This document shows positions 10,605 through 40,494 of a stretch of 64,000 nucleotides of DNA, piece after piece (within the stretch, counting starts at the first letter, position 1; every line of letters begins with the position of its first letter). Both the position numbers and the translations under genes were made by a program. The stretch lies in assembly GCA_017436345.1 (NCBI GenBank), contig JAFSDH010000004.1, positions 2,661 to 66,660 on the forward strand, written 5' to 3'. The notes beneath the pieces were generated by a model. It did no database searches, had not been told where the DNA came from, and worked only from the letters and a program-made list of their open reading frames with translations. This DNA is from Bacilli bacterium. Lineage in GTDB: Bacteria; Bacillota_I; Bacilli_A; RF39; UBA660.

Positions 10605-10633
10605 TTGAAAAAAAATATGAAAAAAATTATAAT
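10605..10633 (+). promoter_or_regulatory. sigma-A type promoter at the left edge of the Tad/T4SS locus
   Basis: TTGAAA (10605-10610), a 17-nt spacer, then TATAAT (10628-10633). It lies 30 nt upstream of the GGAGTGGAG RBS and the ATG at 10664. Confidence 0.6.
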
Positions 10634-10663
10634 TAATATAGTAGGTAGAATAGGAGTGGAGAT

Positions 10664-11374
10664 ATGAAGAAAAAAAGAATATGTCTATTGCTTATAATAT
10701 TATCAATCTTTTTATTTAAGATTGATGTAAATGCAGCAGGAACTTGTACGAAAGATGAAAAACAAAGTTTAGAGAAAATTGCATATGAAATAGATGTAAA
10801 TTATGAGGTCGTTTCAATTGAAAATATACACTCAGATGATTTTAATTATGCATATAATCTTGTTATAAATAATTTTTCAGAAGACTTTTATTTGCTAGTA
10901 GGGAATTATGAAAAAAGGTTAGATTATAATGTTAATGTAAATACATATGAAAATGTATTTATAGGGGGTGGCTATAACGGGAAAATAAAAGTATATAGTA
11001 GCTCGAATACATCTTGTCCAGATACTTTGATACGTTCGTTTGAGATATGGGTTCCCTATTATAATAAATATAGTGAGCGTGCAGAATGTGAAGAATATAA
11101 AGAATATGATATTTGTAAGGTTGCAACTGATACAACCGGTATTAGTGAAGAAGAATTTATAAAAAAAATAGATAAAATTAAAGAGAGTCAAGTAACTGTT
11201 GAGCCAATTGTTGAAGAAGAAAAAAAATGGTATGAAGATATTTATGATTTTTATACTGAGCATAAAGTTTTAATTTTATCTTCAGTAGTAATTATAATCA
11301 TATTAATAGCTACCATAACTATTGTTGTTAAAAAGAAACAAAAAAATAAAATTAAAGTAGATTTAGAGGTGTAA
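10664..11374 (+). CDS. cassette 1, gene A: secreted, C-terminally membrane-anchored 4-Cys protein (unknown family)
   Basis: Signal peptide ...FLFKIDVNA/AG. Ectodomain with SSNTSC and ECEEYKEYDIC patterns, an acidic linker, a C-terminal TM (VLILSSVVIIIILIATITIVV) and a KKKQK tail. Paralog of 15670..16404, which has INTEC and ECKGIEEFSLC. Confidence 0.6.
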   Translation: MKKKRICLLLIILSIFLFKIDVNAAGTCTKDEKQSLEKIAYEIDVNYEVVSIENIHSDDFNYAYNLVINNFSEDFYLLVGNYEKRLDYNVNVNTYENVFIGGGYNGKIKVYSSSNTSCPDTLIRSFEIWVPYYNKYSERAECEEYKEYDICKVATDTTGISEEEFIKKIDKIKESQVTVEPIVEEEKKWYEDIYDFYTEHKVLILSSVVIIIILIATITIVVKKKQKNKIKVDLEV

Positions 11375-11375
11375 T

Positions 11376-14300
11376 ATGAAAAAAAATAAGTTATTAATAT
11401 TAATAATTTGTCTAATAAGTTTTTTACCTTGTTTAACAAATGCTAGTGAGTGTAGTAGCACACCTAGTTATTCTGGGGTAGCAGAATCTGGATATGCAGC
11501 TGCTGGAGGGAAAACTAATTGTAATCCTCCTTGTTATACTAATAGATTCGCAGGATTGAGATTTAGAATTTATTCCTATAAAGATGGAAATTTAAAACCA
11601 CTTGGTAATGGTGTAGATATATGGAGTAAAAAAGCAACTGAAGTTATTACATCATCTGGAAGATATTCATCACCAAATACTGATTTTTTAAACAAAAGAA
11701 TAAATAATAGTTGCACTAATAACGGAAAATTTACAAAATGGAGTACTAGTTTTTCGTTAAACGCTAGTCAATATAAGCAAATGAAAGTATTTTATGATTC
11801 AGAACTAGGATCAGCAAATGCCAAATTAGGACAATACGATTTTGGTGGTTTTATATTAAAATATAATGATAAAGGTGAACCTAATGATGGTTGGTTATAC
11901 GACAATTTATATTCAAAAATAATGAATAGGTCAACCGCTAATGACGAGTTTATCAAAAACTTATGGGGGATAGAAGCGAATTCATTAGTTGCACAAGGTG
12001 AAGATATATATATAGGTGTAGAAATATTACAACGAGTTGATACTAGCTCATATGGTAATTCTAATTATGGAATTAGTACATATAAACTATATTATGGTAG
12101 TCCTTCAGATTTTGCTCCTATTTATGGTACAGCGGAAGCATATGTATCTTTATATAATAGTACAAGTAAAACACCTGTTGGTAAATTAGCAACAACAGGA
12201 AATTTAAAAGGGACATATAAAATTAAAATTAAAAATCCAATGAATACAAACGCTGGATGTTGGGGAAATAGTTGTAGTACATATAATCAATATGCTGGTA
12301 CTGTTTTTGGTTTTTTAGGTGGGAATACAGGATTGTATAATGCTACATACGCTGCAGCTTGTAATAATACTATTGGTATGGCAGTGTTTCATTTTGCTGA
12401 GTGTGAAAAATGTGTTAACAGCTGTGATAATGAATGTGGAAAATATTCAGATGGAACGACTGAGAGAAGAGCTTGTGCTATGAAATATTGTAAAGAGAAC
12501 CCTGTAAAAGGTGAGTCGTATGATTCTTGTATTGCAGCATGTTCTCCAGGTCCATCAAAAGATGAAGGATGTGATCCGAGTGAAAAATGCGATCCAAATA
12601 AATTAGTCACAAATTATAAAGGTGATAAAGTATGTGATGAAAAGGATGATATGAATCAAAAATGTGATGTAGACACAACTATAACAAGTAAAGTTTGTTA
12701 CGATGACAATACTAATATTTCAATACCAGGTGAAGTTATTAGTGATTCAACGGCTAAAGATTTGGAAATTATATATTATAGAATTAATTGTGATGAGAAA
12801 TTGAAGGTGTTTAATGGGTCAAATGGTACTAAGGTATTACAATTTGAAAACAGAGTAGCAGATTTACATATTGGTCTTTCTACAACTTTTGAAAAAAACT
12901 GTACTTTACAATTTAAAGAAAGATACATGGAGTCTGGAACATACAAGTATAAATGGGAAAATGCAAAAGGTAAAGATAAAGACACATCAGCATTAATAAT
13001 GGAAGATATAAAAACTTATGAAGATTATCGTGATAAAACTAAAGATGTAGATTTATACAATGAATATGATAAAATAATAAAAAAATTAAATAATACTTAT
13101 AATAGAGCATATAATCGATTGTCATATGTTACAGAATTAGACACAACAAAAGTAGATGCAACCACAAAAGTGGAAATAGTAAATGAAAGTTTAACTGACT
13201 CTAAAACAATAAACATAAAACTTAAACCAATTTTTTGTGAAATGGGTGATTCAAAAGTTGGATCTGCTTCTATGACTAATTTAAAATGTGTTTTAAAAGA
13301 AGATAAGATTTATTTGCAAGAAGATAACTCTGTTATTTGTGGTAATGACGGTGCCGCAGATATTAAAATAAATAATACCACAGGCGGAACTGGGAATTAT
13401 AAATATACGGTATATTATGGAACTGAATCTACTTGGAATTCTTCATATGGTGATCTTGATGACGTGTATGTAAGTGATGCTACAGAGAGTGGCAGAGAAA
13501 AATGTTTAACAGCAGTGGAAATATTTAATGGATATTGTACTGAGATAGAAGATGTATATAGGTTCAAGCCGTTTACTGCTGGAATTAATACATCAACAAC
13601 TATAACTAAAACAACTGGTAAATATGATATTTACATATCTGGTTATGGTTCTTGTGGACAAATAAAGTTTGGCTGTTGTGCTGACTATAAAATAGAAGAC
13701 GGTAATAAATGTAATAAATGTATGGATTATGATCCAACATCTCAAGAATATTTAGATTGTTATAAAGCATATTGTAGCTGTGATGTTATTTGTGGAGCTA
13801 ATGTTGCATGTCGTGCTAAATATTGTCCTTTAGAATGTGAAGGATGTGAAGTTGGATATACTGATATAACTTCAACTGATGACTCTTGTGACACGTGTGT
13901 TGAAAAATGTAATACTGATTTCTCACCAGCTGGTGGTGGTGGCACTAATAAAAATTTATCAAGTAATATTGTTTGTCGATATGATTGTTGCAATGCATCA
14001 TGTGATATAGGAAATGATACATGTCGTTTTGATTGTTGTATTACAAAGTGTAATAGTTTACAAGAAAAAAATTTACTTGAATATATGGGATATAAAACAA
14101 CAGCTTCTATGACAGCGTTAGAAGCATGTTATCAAGATTGTAGATGTCCTAATGGTAATTGCGGTAATGATTATTACTATAGAACTATAAATCAAGAAAA
14201 ACCATTCCCAGATAGAACTCCAGGAGCTAACTGGTATAATAAAGTAGAACATATTACTGAAAGTGAAAACGTTAATGGGAAATATTATGATCCAACAAAT

Positions 14301-14546
14301 GGGAAAAATTCAGGATATGAATATAAAATTTCTTTAAGCAGTGAAGATATTCAAAAAATTAAAAATGATAAAAAAATAAATACAACGTATACTCAAAAAA
14401 TGAGTTCAGAAGATAAAGCAAATTTGGATGATCGTGGTGTATATTGTAGTTATCTATTACATGATTATTTAAATAATGAATTAAACATTCGAATTGAAGA
14501 AGGTTCGGATGGAAAATATGGAAGTGGGTGTGCTAATATAGGATGA
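11376..14546 (+). CDS. cassette 1, gene B: 1056-aa secreted cysteine-rich protein (unknown family; putative surface/pilus-associated adhesin)
   Basis: Signal peptide MKKNKLLILIICLISFLPCLTNA/SE. About 55-60 Cys by manual count, clustered in CxxC-rich blocks (ECEKCVNSCDNEC...; NKCNKC...CSCDVIC...CEGCE...CRYDCCNASC...CRFDCCITKC). C-terminal motif YYYRTINQEKPFPDR. Starts 1 nt after the upstream stop. Paralog of 16388..19408. Confidence 0.65.
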   Translation: MKKNKLLILIICLISFLPCLTNASECSSTPSYSGVAESGYAAAGGKTNCNPPCYTNRFAGLRFRIYSYKDGNLKPLGNGVDIWSKKATEVITSSGRYSSPNTDFLNKRINNSCTNNGKFTKWSTSFSLNASQYKQMKVFYDSELGSANAKLGQYDFGGFILKYNDKGEPNDGWLYDNLYSKIMNRSTANDEFIKNLWGIEANSLVAQGEDIYIGVEILQRVDTSSYGNSNYGISTYKLYYGSPSDFAPIYGTAEAYVSLYNSTSKTPVGKLATTGNLKGTYKIKIKNPMNTNAGCWGNSCSTYNQYAGTVFGFLGGNTGLYNATYAAACNNTIGMAVFHFAECEKCVNSCDNECGKYSDGTTERRACAMKYCKENPVKGESYDSCIAACSPGPSKDEGCDPSEKCDPNKLVTNYKGDKVCDEKDDMNQKCDVDTTITSKVCYDDNTNISIPGEVISDSTAKDLEIIYYRINCDEKLKVFNGSNGTKVLQFENRVADLHIGLSTTFEKNCTLQFKERYMESGTYKYKWENAKGKDKDTSALIMEDIKTYEDYRDKTKDVDLYNEYDKIIKKLNNTYNRAYNRLSYVTELDTTKVDATTKVEIVNESLTDSKTINIKLKPIFCEMGDSKVGSASMTNLKCVLKEDKIYLQEDNSVICGNDGAADIKINNTTGGTGNYKYTVYYGTESTWNSSYGDLDDVYVSDATESGREKCLTAVEIFNGYCTEIEDVYRFKPFTAGINTSTTITKTTGKYDIYISGYGSCGQIKFGCCADYKIEDGNKCNKCMDYDPTSQEYLDCYKAYCSCDVICGANVACRAKYCPLECEGCEVGYTDITSTDDSCDTCVEKCNTDFSPAGGGGTNKNLSSNIVCRYDCCNASCDIGNDTCRFDCCITKCNSLQEKNLLEYMGYKTTASMTALEACYQDCRCPNGNCGNDYYYRTINQEKPFPDRTPGANWYNKVEHITESENVNGKYYDPTNGKNSGYEYKISLSSEDIQKIKNDKKINTTYTQKMSSEDKANLDDRGVYCSYLLHDYLNNELNIRIEEGSDGKYGSGCANIG

Positions 14547-15085
14547 ATTCGTCAATGTGGGGAGTATTGTTTTTAGCCTTAGGTATAACAGGAATTGTTT
14601 TAATTAATATTTTTGGAGAAATAACAATACAAAATGAACAAAACTATTATTCTTTAAAAGAAGTTACAAAAGCAGCAATGGAAGATGCTGTTGATGAATA
14701 TGCACTAGAAAACGGTATAGGATATGATGGGGTAACTCAAACTGCATACCCTGAATATATGCACTGTGAAGAAGGTGTACCTGGTACTGTAAGAATTATC
14801 AAAGAAAGATTTGTTGAATTATTTATTTTGAAATTTTCTGAAAGTGTAAATATAAATAATGATTATGAAATAGTCTTTAATGATATAGATGAGTGTCCAC
14901 CAAAAGTTACTGTTACGGTAACATCATCTCAAAACTTTAGTATGATACAAAGAGTATTTGGATTAGGTGGCTCAAGAGAAGTTGCTGATGCCGATATTGA
15001 AAATATTATTCATGGTGTTTTAGAAACAGAAAAAACGCAAGATGATGGTATTGCTGAAGATAGAGCAGAACGAGCAGGTGCATAA
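14543..15085 (+). CDS. cassette 1, gene C: small N-terminally anchored TadE/pseudopilin-like protein
   Basis: ATGA start/stop overlap with the upstream gene. Begins MNSSMWG followed by a hydrophobic helix (VLFLALGITGIVLINIFG), and has conserved MHC...IDECPPKVTVT. Roughly half its residues are identical to 19418..19918 by eye. Confidence 0.5.
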   Translation: MNSSMWGVLFLALGITGIVLINIFGEITIQNEQNYYSLKEVTKAAMEDAVDEYALENGIGYDGVTQTAYPEYMHCEEGVPGTVRIIKERFVELFILKFSESVNINNDYEIVFNDIDECPPKVTVTVTSSQNFSMIQRVFGLGGSREVADADIENIIHGVLETEKTQDDGIAEDRAERAGA

Positions 15086-15112
15086 AAAAAGAAGCGATTT
15101 AACGCTTCTTTT
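15086..15112. terminator. bidirectional rho-independent terminator between convergent genes
   Basis: Stem AGAAGCG (15090-15096) pairs with CGCTTCT (15103-15109). It is flanked by an A-run upstream and a T-run downstream, exactly between the stop codons at 15085 (+) and 15113 (-). Confidence 0.75.
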
Positions 15113-15556
15113 TTATTTTTCAATTAATCCATTTGCTTTTAATTTAGAAACTACAGTATCTGCATTTTGATTTCCTACAATTCTTTTTAAAGTACTTGTT
15201 TCGCGTCCATTTTTAAAGAATAAAACAACCGGTGTACCATCAATTCCGTAGTCATCCAAAAACTCACTTCGATCTTTTTCTGTCATATTTGTAATGTTTA
15301 TACTAAATGCTGTTAAATTATATTCGTTTAACACAGATTCAAGTGTAGGAGTAAAATTGCTACAATTTGAGCAACCGGTTTGAACAACTTCAAGAATAAA
15401 ATTATCTTTGTTTGAAAGTTTTTCATTAAAAACTTTATATTCAATTTCAGTTATTGGACTATTTTCGTTTTGATTAGCTTTATTATTTTGGTTACATCCA
15501 ACAATAAAACAAGCAAATATAAGAATTAAAGAAAAAATTTTAATTACTTTTTTCAT
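15113..15556 (-). CDS. thioredoxin-like thiol-disulfide oxidoreductase lipoprotein (CxxC = CSNC)
   Basis: Likely start is MKKVIKIFSLILIFACFIVGC (ATG at 15556-15554, GAGGTGG RBS), with lipobox IVG/C. Active-site-like GCSNCSNF and a cis-Pro strand DGTPVVLFFKNG are typical of the thioredoxin fold. The ORF-track start at 15583 is probably too far upstream. Confidence 0.75.
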   Translation of the reverse strand: MKKVIKIFSLILIFACFIVGCNQNNKANQNENSPITEIEYKVFNEKLSNKDNFILEVVQTGCSNCSNFTPTLESVLNEYNLTAFSINITNMTEKDRSEFLDDYGIDGTPVVLFFKNGRETSTLKRIVGNQNADTVVSKLKANGLIEK

Positions 15557-15669
15557 TATCCACCTCAAAAAATATACTAGCATAAATAAAAAAATAACAC
15601 AATAAAAGATTGTTTTTTACAATAAATTATCGTATACTATAGATAGTATAAAATAGAGGGTGTTGTCGA

Positions 15670-16404
15670 ATGTGTTTTAACAGTAAGAAAAATAAAATTG
15701 CTTTACTTTTAATCATTGTAACATTTTTATTTTTTAATAGAGTTGATGCCGCAAGTTGTACTAACACAATAAAGAGGGAACTTGTAAAAGAAGCGGAAAA
15801 AGTAGAGATTGTTCCTTATTTAAATGAGGAATATAATCCGATGCATGTATATAAATATAATGTTTATATAACAAATTTATCAGAAAATATATTTATTATA
15901 GACTCTATAGGAAATAGATACGAATATGATGAATTCCAAGATGAGAATTCAGTTTTTGGCATGTATGCACCAGGAAGTAAAATAACTTTTACGATTTATG
16001 CCTCTATAAATACTGAGTGTAATAATGCTAAATTAACTAGTTTAACTATAAATTTTGATTATTATAATGATTATTCAACACGTGAAGAATGTAAAGGAAT
16101 TGAAGAGTTTTCTTTGTGTAAAAGAAATTATAATGGAAAAATAGAATCTGATGAATGGTTTAAACAAAAGGTTGAAGAATATAAAAATGGAAATCATGAT
16201 GTTGAAATAGAAGAAGAATCAGAAGAAGAAACTAATAAAATAAAAGATATTATTTTTCATCCTATTACAATAACTATTTTTTCTCTTTTACTTATAGGAA
16301 TAATTGTATTAATTATATATAAATTAAGAAAGAATAAAGGAAAAGTTAAAATAAAATACAAAGATATAAAAGAACGAGGTGAAGAATATGAAGAAAATAA
16401 ATAA
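15670..16404 (+). CDS. cassette 2, gene A: secreted, C-terminally membrane-anchored 4-Cys protein (paralog of 10664..11374)
   Basis: Signal peptide ...FFNRVDA/AS. It has the same Cys spacing pattern as its paralog, an acidic EIEEESEEE linker, a C-terminal TM (ITITIFSLLLIGIIVLIIY) and a basic tail. Confidence 0.6.
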   Translation: MCFNSKKNKIALLLIIVTFLFFNRVDAASCTNTIKRELVKEAEKVEIVPYLNEEYNPMHVYKYNVYITNLSENIFIIDSIGNRYEYDEFQDENSVFGMYAPGSKITFTIYASINTECNNAKLTSLTINFDYYNDYSTREECKGIEEFSLCKRNYNGKIESDEWFKQKVEEYKNGNHDVEIEEESEEETNKIKDIIFHPITITIFSLLLIGIIVLIIYKLRKNKGKVKIKYKDIKERGEEYEENK

Positions 16405-19400
16405 AATATTTTTTGCCATAGCAATAGCTTTATTATCGAACCTAGCTCTAACGGTAGATGCGAAAGTTAACGTTACACCAGGTGGAGGAGGAACTCCACC
16501 AGCTAGTGGTTGTAGTGAATGTGCATGGGTATACTCAAGTGATGGACTAGGAGTAAGATTAAGCTTATATAAGTATGATGAAAAAAATCTAGTATTTAAA
16601 ACTTCAATAGATTTAGTAAATCAACCTTCTAATTATCCAGCAAAGGCAAATACTACAAAGGATAAATTTGGAAGATATAGTTATACTAAACTTAATAAGA
16701 CAATAGATTTTGCCTATTATACAGTTGGAGCGAAAGATATAAATAACTATGGATTTTCAACTATAAATGAAGATAGTGATTCTTGGTCAACAAAATTTGC
16801 TAAAGAAGTTCAAAACTATTTTGGAGAAACAGAAAGCGAAACGATTTCTGGTATTAAAAAAATGTTTGGAGTTACAGTTCCTGTTAATGAACTATCACAA
16901 TATTATATTGTTGCCGAACCAACAGCTTTCTTCTATAGCCGTGTAGGACAATTTTATACTTATGCAACTGGTTATGAATATATGGTTGTTTTAAATGATA
17001 TTGATAAATATACTGGAAATTACTCTTGGAATTTATGGGAATCTCAAGGAAGACATACATTCCTTGGATATATGTTTAATGGTATGTATAACAAAACTGA
17101 TTCAAGTATAGAAACAGAAATAAAAAAAGAATGGGGATTTACAGATGGAAGATATGATTTCTATAACTTCTTATCTCGTAGTAATAATAAATCATTAGTT
17201 AAAACTACATCTAGCTTAATAAGTGAAAAGTCTAAGATTAGAGATAACAATGCATATGCTAAGTCAAACTATCCTTATGGTGTTATGGTATTCTGGATTG
17301 GAAAAAATAGTACTGTAATTGGTGGATGTGAAAATGTATGTACTGACAAAAATGGAAATAAGTTAACAGGTGATGCATTACTTAAATGCGCTGAAAACTA
17401 TTGTTCAAGTTTAGATAATGTAAAAAATAAAGAAGATAAGGCTGATTGTATCACAAATAGTTGTAAATATACTTTTACAAGATTAACTTGTGATAATACA
17501 ACAAGTAAAAATGGTAATGATACAGTATGTACAGCAAGTACAAATTCCAATAAAAAAACTTGTGAAATTAAAAATACACAAAATTATTCATATAAAGTAG
17601 AATGTCAAAATTTTTCAACAGTTGAGTTCCCTGAAACTTTACCAAGTACTTTTGTTGCTGGTCAAGGTTTTGAGTATCGTGTAAGACTATATGGAAACAA
17701 AACATGTACTGTTAAATTGGATGAAGCTTTATGGAAATATAATTATGCATCAAGTTATACAGATACTGAAAGACAAACCTATATTAATGCGTTAAATAGT
17801 TATAATAGCTTAAACTTTTCAGATTATTATTTTGATTCATCAACTGCTAATATAAATGTTAATATTGATAAGAGTAAAGATGGAAAAAAATCAACTGATA
17901 AAGTTCAGTTAAAAGCAGAAGAAAGATATGAACATGGTGATAAAAAAGTAACAACGACATATACAAATCAAAACATTGTTAGTTATCATAAAAATAGCAA
18001 TGTTACAAAATCAGTAAAATTATATACAACCGAGTCAAGTAATGGTACTTACTATGAACTTCCAGGTGTTTGTATATCTGAAAAAGATAATGAAACCCCT
18101 AAAGAAGGATCTGTATGTGAAAAAGGTTTAGGTCCATATAATAAATATTACACTAATATCTATGCAGACGAAGGTAATAACAATATTGAAACGACAGTTA
18201 CATATAATCCAGCGGGACTAGATAATGTTGTAAATAAGTGTGATTATACAATAACTGATGAACCTTTAAGTTGTTATATTGATGTTCAAACAGCATCTAA
18301 TCAAAAAGGTGAAACATTAAAAAATAACGAAGATATTAATTTTATATTAACTGTTATAACTCAAGACAGAACTAGATCAATAAGAAAGAATATTGGTACA
18401 ACACCATTAACAATGGATGATCAATTTAATAATAAAAATGTTTATACTATTTTGAAAAACACAATAACAACAAATAAAGATATAACAGTATATGGAACTG
18501 TTACAGATGGTGAACATATAGCCATTTGTGAAAAAAGAGTCAATATAAATCCACAACAATGCGAATGGACAGTGACTGAAAATAATAATGAAGTAACAGT
18601 TTCATTAAAGCAAATAAAAAATACAAATGCTAAATATTATATTAGAACATCTACAAGTAATACTTGGATGGAAACAAGAACAAGAACTTTCAATAAAACT
18701 AATAAATTAGAAATTGAAGGAAAAATAGTTTCAGGAAGCGATACATATACATGTTATTATTCCGCTAATTTATCTGGTCAAACATGTACAGAATTATATG
18801 AACCAGCACAGTACGATAAAATAAAAAATTATTGTGATACATCATGGCAAAATGATACAGCAAATTATAGTAGTGCAAATGATTGTTTTACTGGATGTAC
18901 TGGAACAAATAAATGTAAAATTCTACATGCATGTACAGAAGTAGAAAAAATAAGAAATTATTGTAAAACTAATTTTGCGGATGATGGATATGAAAATGTT
19001 GGAAGTTGTATAAATGATTGTTCATGTGGTGGGGGACTAGACTATTACTATAGAACAATATCAGTTGATGATCCATTCCCAAAACGTGATGCTCATTACA
19101 ATTGGTTAGGATATGAAGAATATATAACTAATGATAAAGATGATTTAACATCATCGTATACTGATAGTCCTGAATATGAAATAGTTCTTGATAAAAATCG
19201 TATTGATGCTATCAAATCAGATACAAAAAGATATAATTCCAAAACTGGTAATGATGCTTATGGTGATTATATTAGATATGACAAAGAAGATGAAGAAACA
19301 AGCGATTTTAATGAACCATATAAAAGTAAATTTATTCATTTCGATGATACTGAAAATGGTGGATTTAAATCATATTTCACTTATATCGAAGGTGTAAAAA

Positions 19401-19408
19401 CAAGTTAG
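16388..19408 (+). CDS. cassette 2, gene B: ~1006-aa secreted cysteine-rich protein (paralog of 11376..14546)
   Basis: ATG at 16388 follows a GAGGTGA RBS; the ORF track uses the GTG at 16379. Signal peptide MKKINKIFFAIAIALLSNLALTVDA/K and about 30 Cys. Blocks shared with the paralog: GVRLSLYKY vs GLRFRIYSY; GGCENVC...LKCAENYC vs ECEKC...ACAMKYC; YYYRTISVDDPFPKR vs YYYRTINQEKPFPDR. Confidence 0.65.
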   Translation: MKKINKIFFAIAIALLSNLALTVDAKVNVTPGGGGTPPASGCSECAWVYSSDGLGVRLSLYKYDEKNLVFKTSIDLVNQPSNYPAKANTTKDKFGRYSYTKLNKTIDFAYYTVGAKDINNYGFSTINEDSDSWSTKFAKEVQNYFGETESETISGIKKMFGVTVPVNELSQYYIVAEPTAFFYSRVGQFYTYATGYEYMVVLNDIDKYTGNYSWNLWESQGRHTFLGYMFNGMYNKTDSSIETEIKKEWGFTDGRYDFYNFLSRSNNKSLVKTTSSLISEKSKIRDNNAYAKSNYPYGVMVFWIGKNSTVIGGCENVCTDKNGNKLTGDALLKCAENYCSSLDNVKNKEDKADCITNSCKYTFTRLTCDNTTSKNGNDTVCTASTNSNKKTCEIKNTQNYSYKVECQNFSTVEFPETLPSTFVAGQGFEYRVRLYGNKTCTVKLDEALWKYNYASSYTDTERQTYINALNSYNSLNFSDYYFDSSTANINVNIDKSKDGKKSTDKVQLKAEERYEHGDKKVTTTYTNQNIVSYHKNSNVTKSVKLYTTESSNGTYYELPGVCISEKDNETPKEGSVCEKGLGPYNKYYTNIYADEGNNNIETTVTYNPAGLDNVVNKCDYTITDEPLSCYIDVQTASNQKGETLKNNEDINFILTVITQDRTRSIRKNIGTTPLTMDDQFNNKNVYTILKNTITTNKDITVYGTVTDGEHIAICEKRVNINPQQCEWTVTENNNEVTVSLKQIKNTNAKYYIRTSTSNTWMETRTRTFNKTNKLEIEGKIVSGSDTYTCYYSANLSGQTCTELYEPAQYDKIKNYCDTSWQNDTANYSSANDCFTGCTGTNKCKILHACTEVEKIRNYCKTNFADDGYENVGSCINDCSCGGGLDYYYRTISVDDPFPKRDAHYNWLGYEEYITNDKDDLTSSYTDSPEYEIVLDKNRIDAIKSDTKRYNSKTGNDAYGDYIRYDKEDEETSDFNEPYKSKFIHFDDTENGGFKSYFTYIEGVKTS

Positions 19409-20809: not shown

Positions 20810-20810
20810 T

Positions 20811-24495: not shown

Positions 24496-24524
24496 TTGAA
24501 AAAAAAAGTTTATATTGCTATAAT
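24496..24524 (+). promoter_or_regulatory. near-consensus sigma-A promoter directly upstream of the small pilin-like gene
   Basis: TTGAAA (24496-24501), exactly 17 nt of spacer, then TATAAT (24519-24524). It is followed by a strong RBS (GAGAGGAGGA) and the ATG at 24556. Confidence 0.65.
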
Positions 24525-26296: not shown

Positions 26297-26326
26297 TTGA
26301 CAAGAAAGATAATTTTGTCGTATAGT
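26297..26326 (+). promoter_or_regulatory. sigma-A type promoter at the start of the T4SS-like module
   Basis: TTGACA (26297-26302), an 18-nt spacer, then TATAGT (26321-26326). It lies upstream of the GAGGAGG RBS and the ATG at 26357. Confidence 0.55.
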
Positions 26327-27963: not shown

Positions 27964-28004
27964 GATATAATTAGTATGATATATTGGTCTTCATGGAGGA
28001 AAAT

Positions 28005-32983: not shown

Positions 32984-35233
32984 ATGAGCAAAGATAATTC
33001 TAATTTAGAATCACCAAGAGATATCATAGAAAAAAATAAAGCAAGAAACACAAGAGCTCATAATCCAAGTGTGGTAAAAAATCCAATTAATAATTCAAGA
33101 GGTATGGCATCAAACTCTCTAGCAGGCGAAGAAGACTTTGATGGTTCCTTTAAAGATGCTGATGTAGAAGCAAATATCGAATCTCCTGGATCAACAGCTA
33201 TTAGTGGTATTGTATATGCCACTAGAAATTTATTTTTAAATAAATGGTTAATAATAACAATGATGGGAGCAGCATTATTTGGTTTTGTTATGATGATTGC
33301 TGTTGTATTCTTGATTAAAAATACCGATTCATTAAATTACGCGTCAGGAACATATTTAGCTAGTGAAGAATATCGTAAAATTTATGATACAGTAGATAAA
33401 GTAGTTCAAGAATATAAAACTAAATATGGCGTTACTGTTGATAAATATTTAATAATATCTGCTTTAACAGCATATCAAGGAAATGAAATGTATGTAGATA
33501 CAACTGATAGTTCTGCATATGACACTATAACAGTAGATACTGAAGGTGAAGATGGTGTATTTAGTAAATCAGTAACAGAGATGGAAAACTATGTTGAAAT
33601 ACTCGCAAAATATCAAATTGTAACTAAATCAAGTTGTAGTTTAGATAGTAGCACACCTCGTGCAATTGCAAGTAATGATGACTCAACAAATTTATTTAAT
33701 TTCTGGACATCTGCGGCATCTAAAGAAAAAAACTACGATTGTAGTGGTGGAAGTGGATATAGTCTTTCAGTTGATGAGGGACGTCTTGAAGATGATGAAA
33801 GTGGAAGTGCATTCTACTGGAATATGATTGATGAAGATTTTCTATTAGAATATTACTCAAAATATTTTAATGGTGTAAATGATGAAATATATGAATCTCA
33901 TGCTGCTGATGTTGTTGAATATATATATTTATATGCGGAAACATTAGAAACTTATGATACAACAAATACAACTGTAGCTGCTTGTAATGGAACATCATTT
34001 TGGTGGCCAATTGGAAGTAGTGAAACACAAGAAAAAAACGGTGTGTTATTTGCTAGTGGAGAACCTGTAAATACAACTATCACAGCTGATTTTTCTGGAA
34101 ATGATAGTGTTCATAGAGGTTCTCATGGTGGTATTGATATAGCAACTGGAGGAAATCCATATATTATTGCCGCTAAAGCCGGAACTGTTATTTATCCTAG
34201 TGATTTATCACAAACTAATAATGGCGCAGGTTTTTATTGTCAAGATGGAAGATGTATGGGAGCTGGATGTAAAAGTAATACATGTGCAACTGACAGTTGC
34301 TCAAATTATGGTGGAGGATATGGAAACTATGTAAAAATAGAACATTCGGATGGAACATATACAGTATATGCACACATGCTTGCAGGATCGATTACTGTTA
34401 AGTCTGGTGACAAAGTAGCACAGGGGCAAGTTATTGGTAAGATGGGAACAAGTGGTTGCTCAACCGGAGAACACCTTCACTTTGAAGTAAGATTAAGTTC
34501 TGAGAATAAAGTTAATCCACTTGATTATGTAAAAAAAGATGATCCTCGACCAGGATGTGGAGATTTTTCATTAACTTCAACATCTCTTACAAAACAAGAA
34601 TTTGTAACATTAATGCGTAATTATTGTTTATCTAGTGGAAATTCTAATTTTTGTAACAACTTTTCTAGTAATGCAGAACTTGTATATGATGTTTCCCTTC
34701 AAAATAATGTAAATCCTGAACTAGTTGTAGTAACAGCAGGAACAGAACAAGGATGGGGAAAATGTGATGGGTTATATAACTTCTGGGGAATAGGAATTCC
34801 TAATGGTGCTGGATGTAGTGCCGGACCACAACTTACTTCAATGGAAGCTGGAATCAAAAAATATGCAGAAACTATTAATGCTTATTTAGAAGGTGGAAGT
34901 TATGCTAATTCAATAACAAAACGTTATAATGAAAGATCTAGTGCTGGTTGTGATCCTGCAGGACACGGTCTTCCAGGAACATTAGCTGGTATGCAATCTG
35001 TTTACTCTTGGATTGGAGATCATAGATACAATCCAGGAAACTGGGGAAAAGGTGGATGTGTATACTTAAATATAATTTATGGAAGTGATTATTGTTCAAG
35101 TAAAATAACATGTGGTAGTCCATATAGTGGATGTCCACCAGAATCGAAAACTACTACTTGTGAACAAAACGATTATACTACTTGGCAATTAAAGGGAAAG
35201 GTTGAAAAAAGACAAGAAATATTTGGTTTATAG
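32984..35233 (+). CDS. membrane-anchored bifunctional cell-wall hydrolase (M23 peptidase + glucosaminidase/lysozyme-like domain), VirB1/TcpG/PrgK analogue
   Basis: TM at ~residue 85-110. M23 motifs HRGSHGGIDIA and GCSTGEHLHFEV. The C-terminal NVNPELVVVTAGTEQGWGK resembles the glucosaminidase-domain signature. Many Cys throughout. Confidence 0.75.
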   Translation: MSKDNSNLESPRDIIEKNKARNTRAHNPSVVKNPINNSRGMASNSLAGEEDFDGSFKDADVEANIESPGSTAISGIVYATRNLFLNKWLIITMMGAALFGFVMMIAVVFLIKNTDSLNYASGTYLASEEYRKIYDTVDKVVQEYKTKYGVTVDKYLIISALTAYQGNEMYVDTTDSSAYDTITVDTEGEDGVFSKSVTEMENYVEILAKYQIVTKSSCSLDSSTPRAIASNDDSTNLFNFWTSAASKEKNYDCSGGSGYSLSVDEGRLEDDESGSAFYWNMIDEDFLLEYYSKYFNGVNDEIYESHAADVVEYIYLYAETLETYDTTNTTVAACNGTSFWWPIGSSETQEKNGVLFASGEPVNTTITADFSGNDSVHRGSHGGIDIATGGNPYIIAAKAGTVIYPSDLSQTNNGAGFYCQDGRCMGAGCKSNTCATDSCSNYGGGYGNYVKIEHSDGTYTVYAHMLAGSITVKSGDKVAQGQVIGKMGTSGCSTGEHLHFEVRLSSENKVNPLDYVKKDDPRPGCGDFSLTSTSLTKQEFVTLMRNYCLSSGNSNFCNNFSSNAELVYDVSLQNNVNPELVVVTAGTEQGWGKCDGLYNFWGIGIPNGAGCSAGPQLTSMEAGIKKYAETINAYLEGGSYANSITKRYNERSSAGCDPAGHGLPGTLAGMQSVYSWIGDHRYNPGNWGKGGCVYLNIIYGSDYCSSKITCGSPYSGCPPESKTTTCEQNDYTTWQLKGKVEKRQEIFGL

Positions 35234-36321: not shown

Positions 36322-38616
36322 ATGAAATTTAGGTTTAGGGCTGACGCACAAGACGTATTAATATTTGTATTATTTGCAATATTCTTATTGTATGTTGTGT
36401 CATTAGGTGTAATAAATTTATCATATTTAGCTGAAGGAGAAAGTTTAACATTAAATCCATTTCCAGCTTTTAGTCCAGAATATCTTACAAGTACAATTGT
36501 ATTCTATATAATAGCTTTAATTGCTTTATTATTAAGTGTTAGTTCATACTTTTTTGATCGAGAAGAAGGAGTGGGATTCTCACTTGGTAAAAAAGATAAA
36601 GGCTACAGTAGATGGGCTAAAGATAAAGAAATGAAAGCTGTCTTAAAAGAAGTTGATCCAAAACAACCAACAAGTGAATACGCGGGTATTCCACTAATTA
36701 GTAAAAATGGTAAGCTATGGGTTGATAATGGTGAATATCATACTTTAGTTATTGGGGCTACTGGTGCTGGGAAAACACAAAGTACAATTTTACCAGCAAT
36801 TCAATGTTTAGCTAAGAAGGGTGAATCAATGATTTTGACTGACCCTAAAGGTGAATTATATGAAGGAACTGGGGAACTATTAAAATCTAAAGGATATGAC
36901 ATTATTGTATTAAACTTCCGTAGTCCACAAAAGGGGAATGCTTGGAATCCAATGACATTACCATATAGACTTTATACAAGTGGTAATAAAGATAAAGCAA
37001 TCGAATTGTTAGATGACCTTGCATTAAATATCCTATATGAAGAAAATAGTGGTAATTCAGATCCATTCTGGGAAAAAACTTCAGCAGACTATTTTTCAGG
37101 TTTAGCACTTGGATTGTTTGAAGATGCTCCAGAAGAAAAAATTAATATAAATAGTATTAGTTTAACTACTACAGTAGGTGAAGAAAAATGTGGTGGTTCA
37201 ACTTATGTAAAAGAATATTTCAATTTAAAAGATCCTAACTCTCCAGCTTATATTAACGCTAGTGGTACTATTATGGCACCAAACGAAACAAAAGGATCAA
37301 TTATTTCTGTATTTAAACAAAAAGTAAAACTATTCTCATCTCGTGAAAATTTATCAGAGATGTTAAGTTATAGTGATTTTGATTTGAGAACTATTGGTGA
37401 AAGACCAACTGCTGTATTCATAATTATTCAAGATGAAAAGAAAACATACCACTCACTTGCAACAATCTTTATTAAACAATGTTACGAAACATTAATTGAT
37501 GTTGCACAAGAACATGGTGGAAAACTTCCTTGTCGTACAAACTTCTTGCTAGATGAGTTTGCTAACATGCCGCCATTAAAAGATGTTACAACGATGATTA
37601 CTGCTGCTCGTTCAAGACAAGTACGTTTTACAATGATTATCCAAAACTTTGCTCAATTAACGCAAGTATATGGTAAAGAAAATGCTGAAACAATAAAAGG
37701 TAACTGTGGTAACATTGTTTACTTAATTTCAACTGAGTTGTCAGCTTTGGAGGAAATTAGTAAATTATGTGGTGAAGTTAAATCTAAGAAAGATGATAAA
37801 ACAGCATCTACACCACTTGTTACAGTATCAGATTTACAACGTATGAAACAATTTGACCAAATTGTATTACGTTTACGTATGCAACCGTTTAAAACATCTT
37901 TTACACCAAACTTTAAAATAGATTGGGGTAATCAAAAATTCCCTAAAATGGGCTATATAGAAAGAGAAAAACGTCCAGTACAAGTATTTGATGTACGTGA
38001 ATTTGTTAAAGAAAAACGTCAACAAAAAATTAGAGAAATGATGATGGACAATAGTGGTAGTGCTGCACCTGCAGGAGTAGGTGGAGGAATAATGTCTACA
38101 CCAGCACCAACACCTTTAATACCACCATCTCAACCAAAAGATTCTCCAGTATCTTCTGCAAGTAATACTGGAAGTCAATCTGTAGATATAGATGATTTAG
38201 TTAGAAAAATAGATGCTAAAATAGCTGAAATAGAAAAAGAAGAAAAAGCTAAAAATGATGCTGCTAAAAAAGATCAAGAACAACCAAAATCATCTGGTGG
38301 AATTTTATCTTCTCCAAGTGTTGTTGAAAATAAAGAAGTTAATAATAAAACAGTCATTAAGGAAGATACATTTATTTCTAATGAAAGCATTGAAAACAAA
38401 GTAAATGAGATGTTTACTAATAGTGCTTTTGAAGAAAAAATGGATAGAATTGATGAGAAAGTTGAAGAAACAATTATTAAACCTGGTGAAATTATTAAAG
38501 AAGAAAGTATTGTTGAACCTAAACCATCAGTTACTTCTCAAACACCAGCAAAACCAACAATATCACTTGATGATATCGATGAAAATCAATTTTTTGATGA
38601 TTTTTTTGAAGATTAA
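36322..38616 (+). CDS. VirD4/TraG-type type IV coupling protein (T4CP) with long disordered C-terminal tail
   Basis: Two N-terminal TMs. Walker A VIGATGAGKTQS and Walker B NFLLDEFANMP, plus RSRQVRFTMIIQNFAQL. The last ~230 aa are low-complexity and end in DDIDENQFFDDFFED. Confidence 0.85.
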   Translation: MKFRFRADAQDVLIFVLFAIFLLYVVSLGVINLSYLAEGESLTLNPFPAFSPEYLTSTIVFYIIALIALLLSVSSYFFDREEGVGFSLGKKDKGYSRWAKDKEMKAVLKEVDPKQPTSEYAGIPLISKNGKLWVDNGEYHTLVIGATGAGKTQSTILPAIQCLAKKGESMILTDPKGELYEGTGELLKSKGYDIIVLNFRSPQKGNAWNPMTLPYRLYTSGNKDKAIELLDDLALNILYEENSGNSDPFWEKTSADYFSGLALGLFEDAPEEKININSISLTTTVGEEKCGGSTYVKEYFNLKDPNSPAYINASGTIMAPNETKGSIISVFKQKVKLFSSRENLSEMLSYSDFDLRTIGERPTAVFIIIQDEKKTYHSLATIFIKQCYETLIDVAQEHGGKLPCRTNFLLDEFANMPPLKDVTTMITAARSRQVRFTMIIQNFAQLTQVYGKENAETIKGNCGNIVYLISTELSALEEISKLCGEVKSKKDDKTASTPLVTVSDLQRMKQFDQIVLRLRMQPFKTSFTPNFKIDWGNQKFPKMGYIEREKRPVQVFDVREFVKEKRQQKIREMMMDNSGSAAPAGVGGGIMSTPAPTPLIPPSQPKDSPVSSASNTGSQSVDIDDLVRKIDAKIAEIEKEEKAKNDAAKKDQEQPKSSGGILSSPSVVENKEVNNKTVIKEDTFISNESIENKVNEMFTNSAFEEKMDRIDEKVEETIIKPGEIIKEESIVEPKPSVTSQTPAKPTISLDDIDENQFFDDFFED

Positions 38617-38640
38617 AAGCCTTATGGCTTTTTTTATTTT
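38616..38640 (+). terminator. rho-independent terminator after the T4CP gene
   Basis: Stem AAAGCC (38616-38621), loop TTAT, stem GGCTTT (38626-38631), then a T-run. Confidence 0.7.
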
Positions 38641-38690: not shown

Positions 38691-39194
38691 ATGAGTAATA
38701 AGAAAAAAATAAAGAAAGAGAGTAAAAAGACAACTATTAAAAATTTAATTTTTATATTTATTGTGATATTTATAATAGGAATAATATTTATACTTTCTAA
38801 TAATACTAATAAAAAAGATAATAATGGTTTATTTTATTTTAATACATCAGAATTCTCTAATATAACAGCAATTGGCCTACCTGAATATCAAGCTTCATTA
38901 AATTATGAAGATAAATCAATTATTTTCATTTGTAGTAATGAGAGTGAAGATTGTTACAATACTTTAAATAATTTAAATAGTGTAGGAAAAGATAAAAATA
39001 TAAGTATTGAATATTTAAATGTTTTAGAATTAGTTGAAGAAGAAAAAAACGAATTACTACAACTTCTACCAGATTTTGAAAAAAAAGAATATCCATACTT
39101 AGTTGTTATAAATGAAAAAGAAAGTACTATTTATAAAGATTATTTAGAAAAAAGTCATATAGAAGAAATATTAAAAGATAATAAAATAAGTTAG
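38691..39194 (+). CDS. membrane-anchored thioredoxin-fold-like protein without canonical CxxC
   Basis: Lys-rich N-terminus plus a TM. IIFICSNESEDCYNTLNNL (C-x7-C rather than CxxC) and a YPYLVVINEKEST strand. Resembles 5119..5685. Confidence 0.35.
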   Translation: MSNKKKIKKESKKTTIKNLIFIFIVIFIIGIIFILSNNTNKKDNNGLFYFNTSEFSNITAIGLPEYQASLNYEDKSIIFICSNESEDCYNTLNNLNSVGKDKNISIEYLNVLELVEEEKNELLQLLPDFEKKEYPYLVVINEKESTIYKDYLEKSHIEEILKDNKIS

Positions 39195-39206
39195 TAAAGG
39201 TGAAAT

Positions 39207-40421
39207 ATGAAAAGAACGTTGTCATATATATTAATTTTTATATTAGTAATATTAATCTACCAATTGATTGTTGTATTTTTTGCTAATAGTCACGAAGTAG
39301 TATATGAGATAGTTAGTGATAATAATAACTATAAAATAAACGAAAAATATGTAAGGGATGATAGTGGGGATGGATATTATCTTTCAATATCAATAGATGA
39401 TAAAAACTATGCATATTACACAAATAATTATTTCAATAAGCAAAAAAGAATAATTAAAAATATAAAGTCATATGAAGAAAAAGATTATTTATGTATATAT
39501 CCAGTCGATATTAAACAAGAGAATAGTTTTGAAGTATTATGTAGTGATGGAAAAGAAACATATTCATCGTATTATTTAGAAAATAAAATCGATATTGAAA
39601 AGTTTTATAAAGAAATAGGAACAACTTATAAACATTTACAAAACTTAGAAGTTACTCATGATTATAATAATATGTCCTTTTATAAAAATAATTTTTATGA
39701 TAATGAATATTTAGAAGTATATCGTTATAAATCTTTATACGTATATAATAAAAATAAGAACTATGATATACAATTTTCTGATAAAGATATTTATAAAAAT
39801 AATTTAGGTGTTTATATTGATGAGTATTTCTTTGTACCTATCATTAAATCAAATTCCATTAAGTCATATTATTTAATTAATTGTTTAACTAATGAAAAAC
39901 AAACAATAGATTTAGATCAAGAATTATCAACCAATATATATATAATAGGAACATTAAAAGATAAAGTATATATATTTGATTTAAATAATAAATTAGAATA
40001 TGAATTAAGTACTGATGGATCTTTTAAACAAATTGGTAACGTTAATGATGGATTTACAATGTACAAAAAAGGTAGATGGGAAGATACTAGTATTACTGAG
40101 TTTACCAATAATCGTATAACTATCGAAAAAATAATAAGTGATGAATTCGTATATGATTATGAAAATATCTATGAATTAGATAATTCATATTACTTTGTTA
40201 GTGAAAATAAGCTATATAAAACTTATAAGGAAAATTTGGAAAGTAGAATATTACTTTTAGAATTAAATGATTATAGTAATCTACAAGTATCAAATGATAG
40301 AGTATACTATATAAGTGGGGAATATTTATATAGATATGATCAATATGGATTGAAAAATTTAGTTAAAAATAATGAATTTAACTATAATAATACTAATATA
40401 TATCATATATATAATGATTAA
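39207..40421 (+). CDS. N-terminally anchored extracytoplasmic protein, unknown function
   Basis: 404 aa. TM LSYILIFILVILIYQLIVVFF, then a Tyr/Asn-rich beta-type sequence with repeated ...Y.I.....LY..D patterns (propeller-like?). No family recognised. Confidence 0.4.
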   Translation: MKRTLSYILIFILVILIYQLIVVFFANSHEVVYEIVSDNNNYKINEKYVRDDSGDGYYLSISIDDKNYAYYTNNYFNKQKRIIKNIKSYEEKDYLCIYPVDIKQENSFEVLCSDGKETYSSYYLENKIDIEKFYKEIGTTYKHLQNLEVTHDYNNMSFYKNNFYDNEYLEVYRYKSLYVYNKNKNYDIQFSDKDIYKNNLGVYIDEYFFVPIIKSNSIKSYYLINCLTNEKQTIDLDQELSTNIYIIGTLKDKVYIFDLNNKLEYELSTDGSFKQIGNVNDGFTMYKKGRWEDTSITEFTNNRITIEKIISDEFVYDYENIYELDNSYYFVSENKLYKTYKENLESRILLLELNDYSNLQVSNDRVYYISGEYLYRYDQYGLKNLVKNNEFNYNNTNIYHIYND

Positions 40422-40494
40422 GGATTAAAAGTCCTTTTTCTTATATCTTTTATTGATTTTATATTTTTATTATTATAAAATAAAAAGTAGAGAA

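Follow-up and report, generated by a model that had tools for sequence, protein, structure and literature searches.

What would a gut bacterium do with a conjugation apparatus that is built into its chromosome and has no relaxase gene beside it? The question is raised by a locus at positions 10664-40421 of a 64 kb stretch of DNA (positions 2,661 to 66,660 of contig JAFSDH010000004.1; the whole stretch is called the window below), which lies within a 663 kb scaffold (ENA ERZ28654015) from a ruminant gut metagenome and belongs to a bacterium of the class Bacilli. Three modules are encoded there: (i) two adhesin-like cassettes with a thioredoxin, (ii) a Tad-like pilus set and (iii) a Gram-positive VirB4/VirD4 type IV secretion system (T4SS) with two VirB2-like pilins. 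The answer towards which the evidence leans is that the locus derives from the conjugation apparatus of pAW63/pXO2/pBMB67-like plasmids, is fixed in the chromosome and relaxase-less in that none was found nearby, has become a core trait of a low-GC clade of gut and rumen Bacilli and would be used for contact-dependent transfer.

The identity of the T4SS is solid. The motifs from which its two ATPases had originally been recognised (GTSGSGKST and MIDEAH in VirB4, GATGAGKT and LLDEFANMP in VirD4) are all found in the translations, and both proteins have strong family matches, VirB4 to the Mbov_0397 VirB4 family of Mycoplasma integrative and conjugative elements (ICEs; NCBIfam, 4.5e-105), to CD1110 (2e-53) and to Thermoanaerobacter VirB4 (PDB 4AG5, 4.8e-57), and VirD4 to the NCBIfam CD1115 family (300.6 bits, above the cut-off of 250) as well as to Pfam. 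The two VirB2-like genes also hold, the first being above the PF18895 cut-off (and matching the Mbov_0395 pilin-like family at 5.8e-4) and the second a paralogue below it. The VirB6-like and PrgI/VirB3-like calls are supported by matches that are weak but concordant, which for the former include the NCBIfam families MMCAP2_0566 (6e-8), Mbov_0396 (3e-7) and pLS20_p028 (1.6e-4). Since the 111-, 187- and 598-aa proteins align to residues 3-96, 92-276 (6e-17) and 294-889 of the fused Mycoplasma ICE VirB4 family, VirB3/PrgI, TrsD and VirB4 are separate genes here. Of the cell-wall hydrolase, predicted as an M23 peptidase joined to a glucosaminidase-like domain, the M23 part stands and the glucosaminidase part was not confirmed, the C-terminus finding no match by phmmer against PDB; the position of this gene is kept in relatives and its catalytic domain is swapped (M23 in the window, SpoIID and CHAP in locus L108, 17465-19612). 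No family match, and none by phmmer against PDB, was obtained for the 389-aa protein encoded between the pilin genes. The 192- and 164-aa proteins encoded behind the hydrolase have no family match and no detectable orthologues outside the same species, and a VirB8-like role for them is a guess.

The Tad assignments are uneven. The ATPase contains the three motifs first noticed in it (GETGSGKT, ILLSE and STIHA) and its T2SSE match is strong; it also matches the NCBIfam models for VirB11 (1e-29), TIGR03819 (2e-26) and TrbB (4e-26), all below cut-off, and FlaI (5e-17), CpaF (9e-16) and VirB11 (8e-15) in PDB. It falls in the TadA/FlaI/VirB11 clade, within which these scores do not separate a TadA/CpaF type from VirB11. 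The CpaB-like protein stays below the family cut-offs (22.9 bits for a cut-off of 28.8 with RcpC, 23 bits for one of 71 with TIGR03177); it matches the SAF protein of pBMB67 (phmmer 4.7e-26) and has homologues on 367 plasmids, 358 of them from Bacillus and many annotated as cpaB. For the two proteins taken originally for T2SSF-like platform proteins, there is no direct match in Pfam, NCBIfam or PDB and no significant similarity of one to the other by hhalign; what speaks for them is a topology that fits TadB/TadC in both and, for the TadC-like protein (507 representative homologues), a match to Pfam T2SSF in 5 of 44 distant homologues (best 3e-5). The pilin-like and TadE-like calls likewise stand by their N-termini and not by any family match: the 63-aa and 145-aa proteins, and both DUF5411 proteins of the cassettes, share a leader of 6-7 residues ending in Gly and followed by a hydrophobic helix, which resembles a prepilin. 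A comparison of the 145-aa protein with the DUF4320 protein of pBMB67 was not significant by hhalign. The TadZ-like assignment holds at the fold level only, the C-terminal domain of the AlphaFold model matching ParA, MinD, FlhG, ParF and FleN by Foldseek (1e-5 to 1e-4) with no family match at the sequence level; its modelled alpha/beta domain followed by a ParA/MinD fold is the TadZ/CpaE architecture. Neither the TadB-like nor the TadZ-like protein found a match in PDB when its ortholog alignment was used for a profile search.

Where might such a combination have come from? Tad systems and Gram-positive T4SSs had been regarded in the original prediction as normally separate, which made the locus look like a hybrid. 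This is overturned by pBMB67, a B. thuringiensis plasmid typed as conjugative with a MOBP relaxase, which holds both core sets in one transfer region. Its T4SS genes encode, in order, a MobP3 relaxase, a VirD4 of the CD1115 family, a VirB2-like small protein, TrbL, PrgI, a 227-aa TrsD-like ORF (open reading frame) and VirB4, and farther on come an 851-aa ORF, a 134-aa ORF, SAF/CpaB, an AAA ATPase, a T2SS/T4P/T4SS-family ATPase, two membrane ORFs, an 89-aa ORF and DUF4320. The core proteins of the window are detectably homologous (phmmer) to their pBMB67 counterparts in both sets, i.e. VirD4 (1e-70), VirB4 (3.5e-78), TrsD-like (1e-16) and PrgI (8e-5) on one side, and CpaB (5e-26), the ATPase (3e-34), TadB-like (5e-10) and TadC-like (3e-9) on the other, and in both cases a giant surface protein is encoded upstream. 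The transfer region of pAW63, pXO2 and pBT9727 has been published as encoding VirB11, VirB4 and VirD4 homologues, with two conserved hypothetical genes beside the pAW63-family "VirB11" and a 1416-aa surface protein nearby (PMC1196294, PMC9673590). Because pBMB67 and the pAW63/pXO2-type plasmids carry both sets, the pairing of Tad and T4SS is an inherited conjugation architecture rather than a new hybrid.

The kinship is nevertheless distant. The best plasmid VirB4 in a tblastn search of 72,556 plasmids is 28% identical, the top matches being B. thuringiensis plasmids, and identities between the window and Bacillus plasmids are only 23-34%. The gene order differs too, since on the plasmid the relaxase and VirD4 genes come before VirB6 and the TadZ-like gene lies between CpaB and the ATPase. 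Above all, pBMB67 has a MobP3 relaxase gene directly upstream of virD4, replication and partition genes and insertion sequence (IS) elements, all of which the window is without.

That no relaxase, integrase or other mobility gene accompanies the locus, as had been claimed, was confirmed for every ORF of at least 100 aa in the 64 kb window, among which no member of the relaxase, recombinase, transposase, partition or replication families was found; the MobP3 relaxase of pBMB67 has no homologue in the window. The only locus proteins with no hydrophobic segment are the ATPase, TadZ-like, TrsD-like and VirB4 proteins and, because all four are assigned, no unassigned non-membrane protein is left in the locus as a relaxase candidate. 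No flanking direct (att-like) repeats surround the locus, no tRNA gene lies at either border, and its GC content is inside the range of the remaining window (~27% for the window as a whole). The flanks of variant loci consist of housekeeping genes, none of the 25 families listed there being a mobility family.

Evidence that the apparatus is resident rather than visiting comes from relatives. In a comparison with 11 GTDB species genomes and further metagenome contigs, the same gene order was found, often behind the same lipid kinase and thioredoxin, and the synteny that had been proposed as a check extends, with the left flank, to ~100 related gut and rumen loci from other species. VirB4 is 94-96% identical to its relatives at the amino acid level, with a synonymous divergence (dS) of 0.64-1.35 and a ratio of nonsynonymous to synonymous divergence (dN/dS) of 0.03-0.06; for the flanking lipid kinase, the corresponding values are 73-79%, 1.1-1.4 and 0.10-0.17. 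Identity to orthologues rises from 25-59% in the giants of the cassettes and 36-72% in the pilins to 81-89% in the platform proteins, 88-90% in TrsD and 94-96% in VirB4, i.e. surface parts vary widely and motor proteins do not, which argues for long divergence under unequal constraint and not for recent transfer. Beyond these close relatives, relatives of VirB4 are encoded on at least 482 metagenome stretches and, in the 80 loci taken from them, many of which are from the human gut, VirB4 is 75-86% identical; in the two metagenome loci that have both genes, TypA is 82% and VirB4 78-79% identical to the window copies. Judged by these comparisons, the locus is old, vertically inherited and under very strong purifying selection, unlike the plasmid-borne pBMB67 type. 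The suspicion that it had been domesticated and is not self-transmissible is thus borne out by a VirB4 dS that resembles that of the flanking kinase, the very low dN/dS, the conserved position and the remoteness of any plasmid VirB4.

Do the modules act together or are they merely adjacent? This had been left open, and the evidence now favours the former without being uniform. Among the 39 loci that are informative for Tad content (at least 9.5 kb of upstream sequence), the full Tad core adjoins the T4SS in 27, only the ATPase and TadZ-like genes are there in one, only the TadZ-like gene in five, and no Tad genes lie within 10 kb of the T4SS in six. The single locus (L036, 2227-5390) reads lipid kinase, thioredoxin, ATPase, TadZ-like and T4SS, with no platform or pilin genes; the TadZ-like-only type (L026-L029, e.g. 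L028 3456-4409) reads lipid kinase, thioredoxin, TadZ-like and T4SS. The TadZ-like gene thus stays with the T4SS in loci that lack the Tad core, and its product appears to be tied to the T4SS. The identity of Tad proteins to the window copies rises and falls with that of VirB4 (rho 0.56-0.87), much as the identities of VirB6 (0.74) and TrsD (0.78) do. Two or three independent systems standing side by side, i.e. a T4SS and, functionally uncoupled from it, a Tad-like pilus that serves adhesion together with the adhesins, would readily explain the six loci with a T4SS alone, the five that keep only the TadZ-like gene, the lineage in which a lipid kinase-thioredoxin-giant-DUF5411 cassette occurs alone, the DUF5411/CpaF-type operons with no reported T4SS in Roseburia, Ruminococcus and Eubacterium (PMC9523054) and the separate promoter-like sites at 24496 and 26297, but we consider this unlikely since conjugative Bacillus plasmids carry the same pairing within their transfer region (PMC1196294), most species have retained adjacency and order across saturated synonymous divergence, Tad and T4SS proteins co-diverge, a hairpin scan detected no terminator between the modules, and the TadZ-like gene remains when the Tad core is absent. 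The modules are co-inherited as a rule and, as on the plasmids, probably work together.

How could such a machine work? In the derivative of a plasmid conjugation apparatus that we envisage, the three co-inherited modules would build one cell-contact machine. The cassettes would provide fast-evolving, exchangeable adhesins, possibly displayed on the pilin-like DUF5411 subunit, and the membrane thioredoxins would form the disulfides of the Cys-rich giants. A Tad/archaeal-type motor, made of the CpaB-like protein, a hexameric ATPase and the two platform proteins, would polymerise the 63-aa pilin and the pseudopilin-like protein into a thin pilus for locating a partner cell and keeping hold of it, as thin pili do in IncI R64 and PAPI-1 transfer. 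The monoderm T4SS with its VirB2-like pilins would then open a channel across membrane and wall, into which VirD4 would recruit a cytoplasmic substrate, and the TadZ-like ParA/MinD-fold protein, encoded at the junction, would probably position or couple the two machines.

What is transferred is less easily said. Because of the conjugative ancestry, DNA or nucleoprotein passing between related cells, nicked by the product of an unrecognised or distant gene, is our tentative preference. A role like that of the Patescibacteria systems discussed below, i.e. obligate interaction with other cells in which protein or other cargo is moved, is nearly as likely, and a lifestyle-critical function is favoured because of the extreme constraint on VirB4 and because that group offers a parallel in its essential T4SS without a relaxase. 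A coupling protein with no relaxase had earlier been taken to suggest a non-canonical substrate, which is so far an inference. Delivery of an interbacterial toxin or host-cell effector, with the hydrolase or other secreted proteins as cargo, would be in keeping with the frequency of VirD4-dependent effector T4SSs (PMC12857230), the exchange of hydrolase catalytic domains between species and the presence of a C39-ABC bacteriocin-type exporter nearby. We find it improbable, since neither effector-immunity pairs nor secretion-signal domains could be recognised and, because every locus protein that is still role-less carries a signal peptide or a membrane anchor, these proteins would be exported by Sec and not recruited by VirD4.

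Less probable still is a DNA-uptake machine, like Helicobacter ComB or archaeal Ced, in which the pilus would capture DNA that the T4SS imports, supplying a reduced genome with nucleotides or genes: 31 of the 32 informative loci still have, downstream of VirB4, the VirD4 that recruits cytoplasmic export substrates, and the window contains no ComEC-type gene. The ComB importer is not known to use a VirD4. Flp/Tad pili are reported to be needed for transformation of Micrococcus luteus (PMC4322843), T4SS-derived importers exist (PMC12857230) and two variant loci encode staphylococcal-nuclease homologues close to the T4SS, but essentiality of the T4SS in Southlakia is not due to ComEC-dependent competence (PMC12857230). 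Finally, an ordinary ICE or integrated plasmid, active or recently decayed, with its relaxase and integrase outside the examined region, is hardly credible, for although the closest characterised homologues are all conjugation systems (CD1115 VirD4, the Mycoplasma ICE VirB4/VirB6/pilin families and pBMB67) and relaxase genes can be far from virB4 (PMC12102498), everything reported above about dS and dN/dS, chromosomal position, GC content, housekeeping flanks, the 28% ceiling on plasmid VirB4 identity and the absence of integrase, transposase, relaxase and att repeats from the 64 kb speaks against it.

Several points weigh against a single, chromosomally fixed cell-contact machine of conjugative origin. 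Because the Tad core is missing beside the T4SS in 12 of the 39 loci and the adhesin cassette stands alone in one lineage, the modules are separable, and the promoter-like sites before the pilin gene and the T4SS suggest, as consensus matches can, partly independent transcription. The 63-aa pilin has neither the Flp G/XXXXEY motif (no E/Y at +5/+6) nor a match to the Flp family, and no prepilin peptidase (A24, TadV/CpaA) was found among ORFs of at least 100 aa in the window; such a peptidase, or a relaxase (including one of Rep-type MOBT), may lie elsewhere in the genome. Comparisons by hhalign of the small window proteins with the small ORFs and the AAA ATPase of pBMB67 were not significant. 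The AlphaFold model of a DUF5411 protein has no significant Foldseek match, and the idea that it is a pilin therefore draws on topology only. The argument from a small-genome lifestyle, lastly, is taken from contig sizes (663 kb here, at most 1.28 Mb in relatives).

The nearest analogue of the apparatus appears to be the T4SS of Patescibacteria (Southlakia epibionticum, TM7x), an essential chromosomal system of the MPF-FATA-related monoderm type, mostly without a relaxase, which has arrays of PF18895 VirB2-like pilins that are sometimes split by a non-pilin gene, TrsD-, PrgI- and VirB6-like proteins and VirB4, has peptidase/lysozyme genes downstream, and works alongside type IV pili in cells with small genomes (PMC12102498, PMC12857230). 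The window has the corresponding gene features, being chromosomal, with no relaxase in the window, PF18895 pilins, and TrsD, PrgI and VirB6 genes near virB4. The differences are that in Patescibacteria VirD4 is usually encoded away from virB4 and the pili are not encoded with the T4SS, and that the host here belongs to another phylum, Bacillota, class Bacilli, according to five independent submissions of metagenome-assembled genomes. A 2025 review of T4SSs held VirB2-type pilins and essentiality in monoderm T4SSs to be unique to Patescibacteria. That the clade depends on its apparatus as Saccharibacteria do on theirs, as an essential organ for life attached to other cells or for exchange with them, which would make it a second, independent or even ancestral, Patescibacteria-type T4SS in Bacillota, fused to its own Tad-like pilus and adhesins, is a rather unlikely extension of this analogy.

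Other known systems share parts of the design. ICEs of Mycoplasma (ICEA/ICEB; Mbov_0395-0397, MMCAP2_0565/0566) give the best NCBIfam matches for the pilin-like, VirB6 and VirB4 proteins, below cut-offs, and have the same order of pilin-like protein, membrane protein and VirB4, but they fuse into one protein the VirB3, TrsD and VirB4 that are three genes in the window. These ICEs owe their mobility to a DDE recombinase. They are mobile elements with no wall hydrolase or Tad module (PMC12857230). In the IncI plasmid R64, with its thin pilus, and in P. aeruginosa PAPI-1, a type IV filament is likewise encoded with VirB4/VirD4 and serves donor-recipient contact, the pilus being essential for PAPI-1 transfer (PMC12857230), but these are diderm, mobile elements with type IVb pili and relaxases, and sequence kinship is found only at the level of ATPase superfamilies. 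The operons of Roseburia, Ruminococcus and Eubacterium have DUF5411, a CpaF-family ATPase, a platform protein and a large surface protein, but belong to the class Clostridia and have no T4SS reported alongside (PMC9523054). Canonical Tad/Flp systems (Aggregatibacter, Caulobacter, Bifidobacterium) share with the window an ATPase of this clade, a TadZ-like protein, small pilin-like proteins and probably also the pair of platform proteins and CpaB/RcpC, and differ in having what the window does not show, i.e. the G/XXXXEY motif, TadV/CpaA and direct T2SSF or Flp/TadE Pfam matches. Full-text literature searches, which also covered RF39 and RFN20, turned up no description of this chromosomal system in Bacilli. 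What appears new is the chromosomal domestication in a widespread gut clade, the pairing of Tad and T4SS on plasmids being already known.

If correct, this would mean that a second monoderm lineage besides Patescibacteria, one that is common in animal and human guts, has made a conjugation machine a fixed part of its chromosome. A VirB4 constrained like a translation factor suggests that the apparatus is central to lifestyle and offers a handle on whether these cells are attached or dependent. The lineages with the full set, the ATPase and TadZ-like genes, the TadZ-like gene only or the T4SS alone form a natural dissection series for finding the parts that cooperate. There may also be consequences for the plasmids. 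In pBMB67 (L107, 27673-36994), the region of the "lone VirB11-type ATPase" is ringed by SAF/CpaB, ParA-like, two platform-like and small pilin-like ORFs. The VirB11 region of B. cereus-group plasmids, pXO2 and pAW63 included, is, from gene content, probably a complete Tad-like module, which would revise the view of Gram-positive conjugation as pilus-free.

Table 1. Features of the locus in window coordinates; promoter-like sites are consensus matches.
Feature	Positions	Strand	Remarks
Promoter-like site, 11/12 consensus positions	10605..10633	+	just past lipid-kinase terminator (10572-10604)
Cassette 1, 236-aa protein, signal peptide and C-terminal membrane anchor	10664..11374	+	paralogue of 15670-16404 (32% identity, E 2e-17)
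Cassette 1, 1056-aa secreted Cys-rich giant (59 Cys), candidate adhesin	11376..14546	+	C-terminal YYYRTI..PFP region conserved
Cassette 1, DUF5411 protein	14543..15085	+	Pfam PF17424 9e-33
Terminator-like hairpin	15085..15114	.	separates convergent genes after first cassette
Membrane-anchored thioredoxin, CSNC motif	15113..15583	-	Pfam Thioredoxin 1.3e-10; sole minus-strand gene; adjoins lipid kinase in relatives
Cassette 2, 244-aa anchored protein	15670..16404	+	paralogue of 10664-11374
Cassette 2, 1009-aa secreted Cys-rich giant (30 Cys)	16379..19408	+	paralogue of cassette 1 giant
Cassette 2, DUF5411 protein	19418..19918	+	Pfam 3e-39; AlphaFold pLDDT 67
CpaB/RcpC-like (SAF) bitopic protein	19934..20809	+	Pfam RcpC 8e-5, TIGR03177 3e-5
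TadA/CpaF/VirB11/FlaI-clade secretion ATPase, 668 aa, repetitive Pro/Val/Glu-rich tail	20790..22796	+	Pfam T2SSE 2.9e-26
TadB-like platform protein, 4 hydrophobic segments around ~150-aa cytoplasmic domain	22817..23710	+	phmmer 4.9e-10 to ORF 3' of pBMB67 ATPase
TadC-like platform protein	23710..24489	+	phmmer 3.4e-9 to pBMB67 ORF
Promoter-like site, 11/12, extended -10 TG	24496..24524	+	precedes pilin gene
63-aa pilin-like protein	24556..24747	+	leader MKEA[ST]G then hydrophobic helix (12-orthologue alignment)
145-aa pseudopilin-like (TadE-like) protein	24777..25214	+	leader MRE[AS]xGG then hydrophobic helix (alignment)
TadZ/CpaE-like protein, 351 aa, N-terminal alpha/beta domain and ParA/MinD-fold domain, degenerate Walker A	25227..26282	+	AlphaFold pLDDT 81
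Promoter-like site, 11/12	26297..26326	+	between Tad and T4SS modules
VirB2-like T4SS pilin 1, two-helix hairpin	26357..26662	+	PF18895 2.6e-7, 31 bits, above cut-off
389-aa bitopic surface protein between two pilin genes	26744..27913	+	position kept in relatives
VirB2-like T4SS pilin 2	27984..28406	+	PF18895 2.6e-4, 21 bits, below cut-off; 39% identical to pilin 1
VirB6-like polytopic channel protein	28425..30206	+	TrbL_4 6e-5
PrgI/VirB3-like protein, 111 aa	30226..30561	+	TcpE 1.3e-3 (weak); phmmer 8e-5 to pBMB67 PrgI
TrsD/TraC-like protein, 187 aa, equivalent to VirB4 N-terminal domain	30527..31090	+	PF26593 (precomputed annotation)
VirB4 ATPase, 598 aa	31087..32883	+	orthologues 94-96% identical
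Membrane-anchored cell-wall hydrolase, 749 aa, M23 domain (VirB1 role)	32984..35233	+	Pfam M23 8e-24
Two small bitopic proteins, 192 and 164 aa	35202..36255	+	membrane topology
VirD4 coupling protein, intact Walker A and B, long low-complexity tail	36322..38616	+	Pfam T4SS-DNA_transf 1.8e-57
Terminator-like hairpin	38615..38632	+	immediately 3' of virD4
Thioredoxin-fold paralogue, membrane-anchored, w/o CxxC motif	38691..39194	+	BLASTP E 2e-6 to 15113-15583
404-aa bitopic protein	39207..40421	+	27-28% identical homologues downstream of VirD4 in L032, L052, L054, L056

The two paralogous cassettes upstream of the Tad set, a module left unassigned in the original prediction, each consist of an anchored protein of ~240 aa, a giant and a DUF5411 protein, with the membrane thioredoxin between them and its degenerate paralogue 3' of virD4. 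The 236-aa protein matched no known family, and its orthologues are 30-36% identical. The 1056-aa giant, whose orthologues are only 25-32% identical, has no match in Pfam, NCBIfam or PDB (the latter by phmmer); its C-terminus matches that of the paralogous giant and, weakly, that of the 851-aa ORF of pBMB67 (E ~1e-3). In Clostridia, DUF5411 has been recorded before in operons predicted to be pilus-like, in the company of CpaF- and PilC-like genes (PMC9523054). The first copy has a 7-residue leader ending in Gly and then an N-terminal hydrophobic helix in the alignment, the model of the second has a 46-residue N-terminal helix and a small sheet, and a minor pilin is thus a possible identity. 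In one relative (L104-L106, ~3233-10495 of a 1.27 Mb contig), the lipid kinase and thioredoxin are followed by two small proteins, a 1298-aa giant, DUF5411 and then housekeeping genes, and therefore the adhesin cassette can exist with no adjacent Tad or T4SS genes. The 404-aa protein at the other end of the locus seems, from its homologues, to travel with the T4SS.

Some parts of the locus vary in composition between species. The disordered tail of the secretion ATPase consists of 165-nt (55-aa) Pro/Val/Glu-rich tandem repeats (22292-22603) and appears to expand and contract, because homologue length varies between 370 and 813 aa (truncation being possible for some). Five loci retrieved with this ATPase, from archaea, Proteobacteria and Magasanikbacteria (L017-L021), were dropped, the common part being the P-loop region only. 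In variant loci (among L028, L032, L036, L052 and L101), the T4SS flanks contain two ORFs with a staphylococcal-nuclease domain, as well as VWA and dockerin domains.

Genes in the window are strongly biased towards the plus strand, as stated originally for the locus itself, where a recount gives 26 of 27 ORFs in 10664-40421 on that strand instead of 27 of 28. Neighbouring ORFs overlap at 14543/14546, 20790/20809, 23710, 30527/30561 and 31087/31090. Promoter-like sites are not more numerous than in shuffled sequence in this AT-rich DNA, so only the intergenic sites that match 11 of 12 positions are cited, as consensus matches.

Both flanks are made of core genes, as had been noted, with typA, trmL, uptA, a prenyl-diphosphate synthase, a pentapeptide-repeat protein and the lipid kinase upstream, and asnS, ftsA, ftsZ, ftsK and dnaE downstream, where a LysM protein, the C39-ABC exporter, yfmF/yfmH, sepF and divIVA are also found. 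A mislabelled Patescibacterium was considered as host and rejected, since identical or related proteins carry the label "Bacilli bacterium" and five submitters, independently of one another, have entered relatives as Bacilli, Bacillota, Erysipelotrichaceae or "Clostridium sp.", and it is also contradicted by the Bacillus-type yfmF/yfmH, sepF, divIVA and uptA inside the window. At 5119-5685, there is a PedC-like/DUF6568 thioredoxin-fold protein which, with the others, brings the extracytoplasmic thiol-disulfide proteins of the window to three or four. The C39-peptidase ABC exporter and the small ORFs alongside make up a bacteriocin-type export cluster (44363-47667). A HerA-family ATPase (56874-58646) adjoins sepF and divIVA and partially matches anti-phage HerA, the archaeal DNA-translocating CedD and the C-terminus of CD1110-type VirB4. 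Downstream of asnS, a 541-aa protein (42459-44084) matches no family and has 27-28% identical homologues in two genomes of more distant kinship (L015 and L016, ~1470), where their genes lie upstream of the Tad/T4SS locus.

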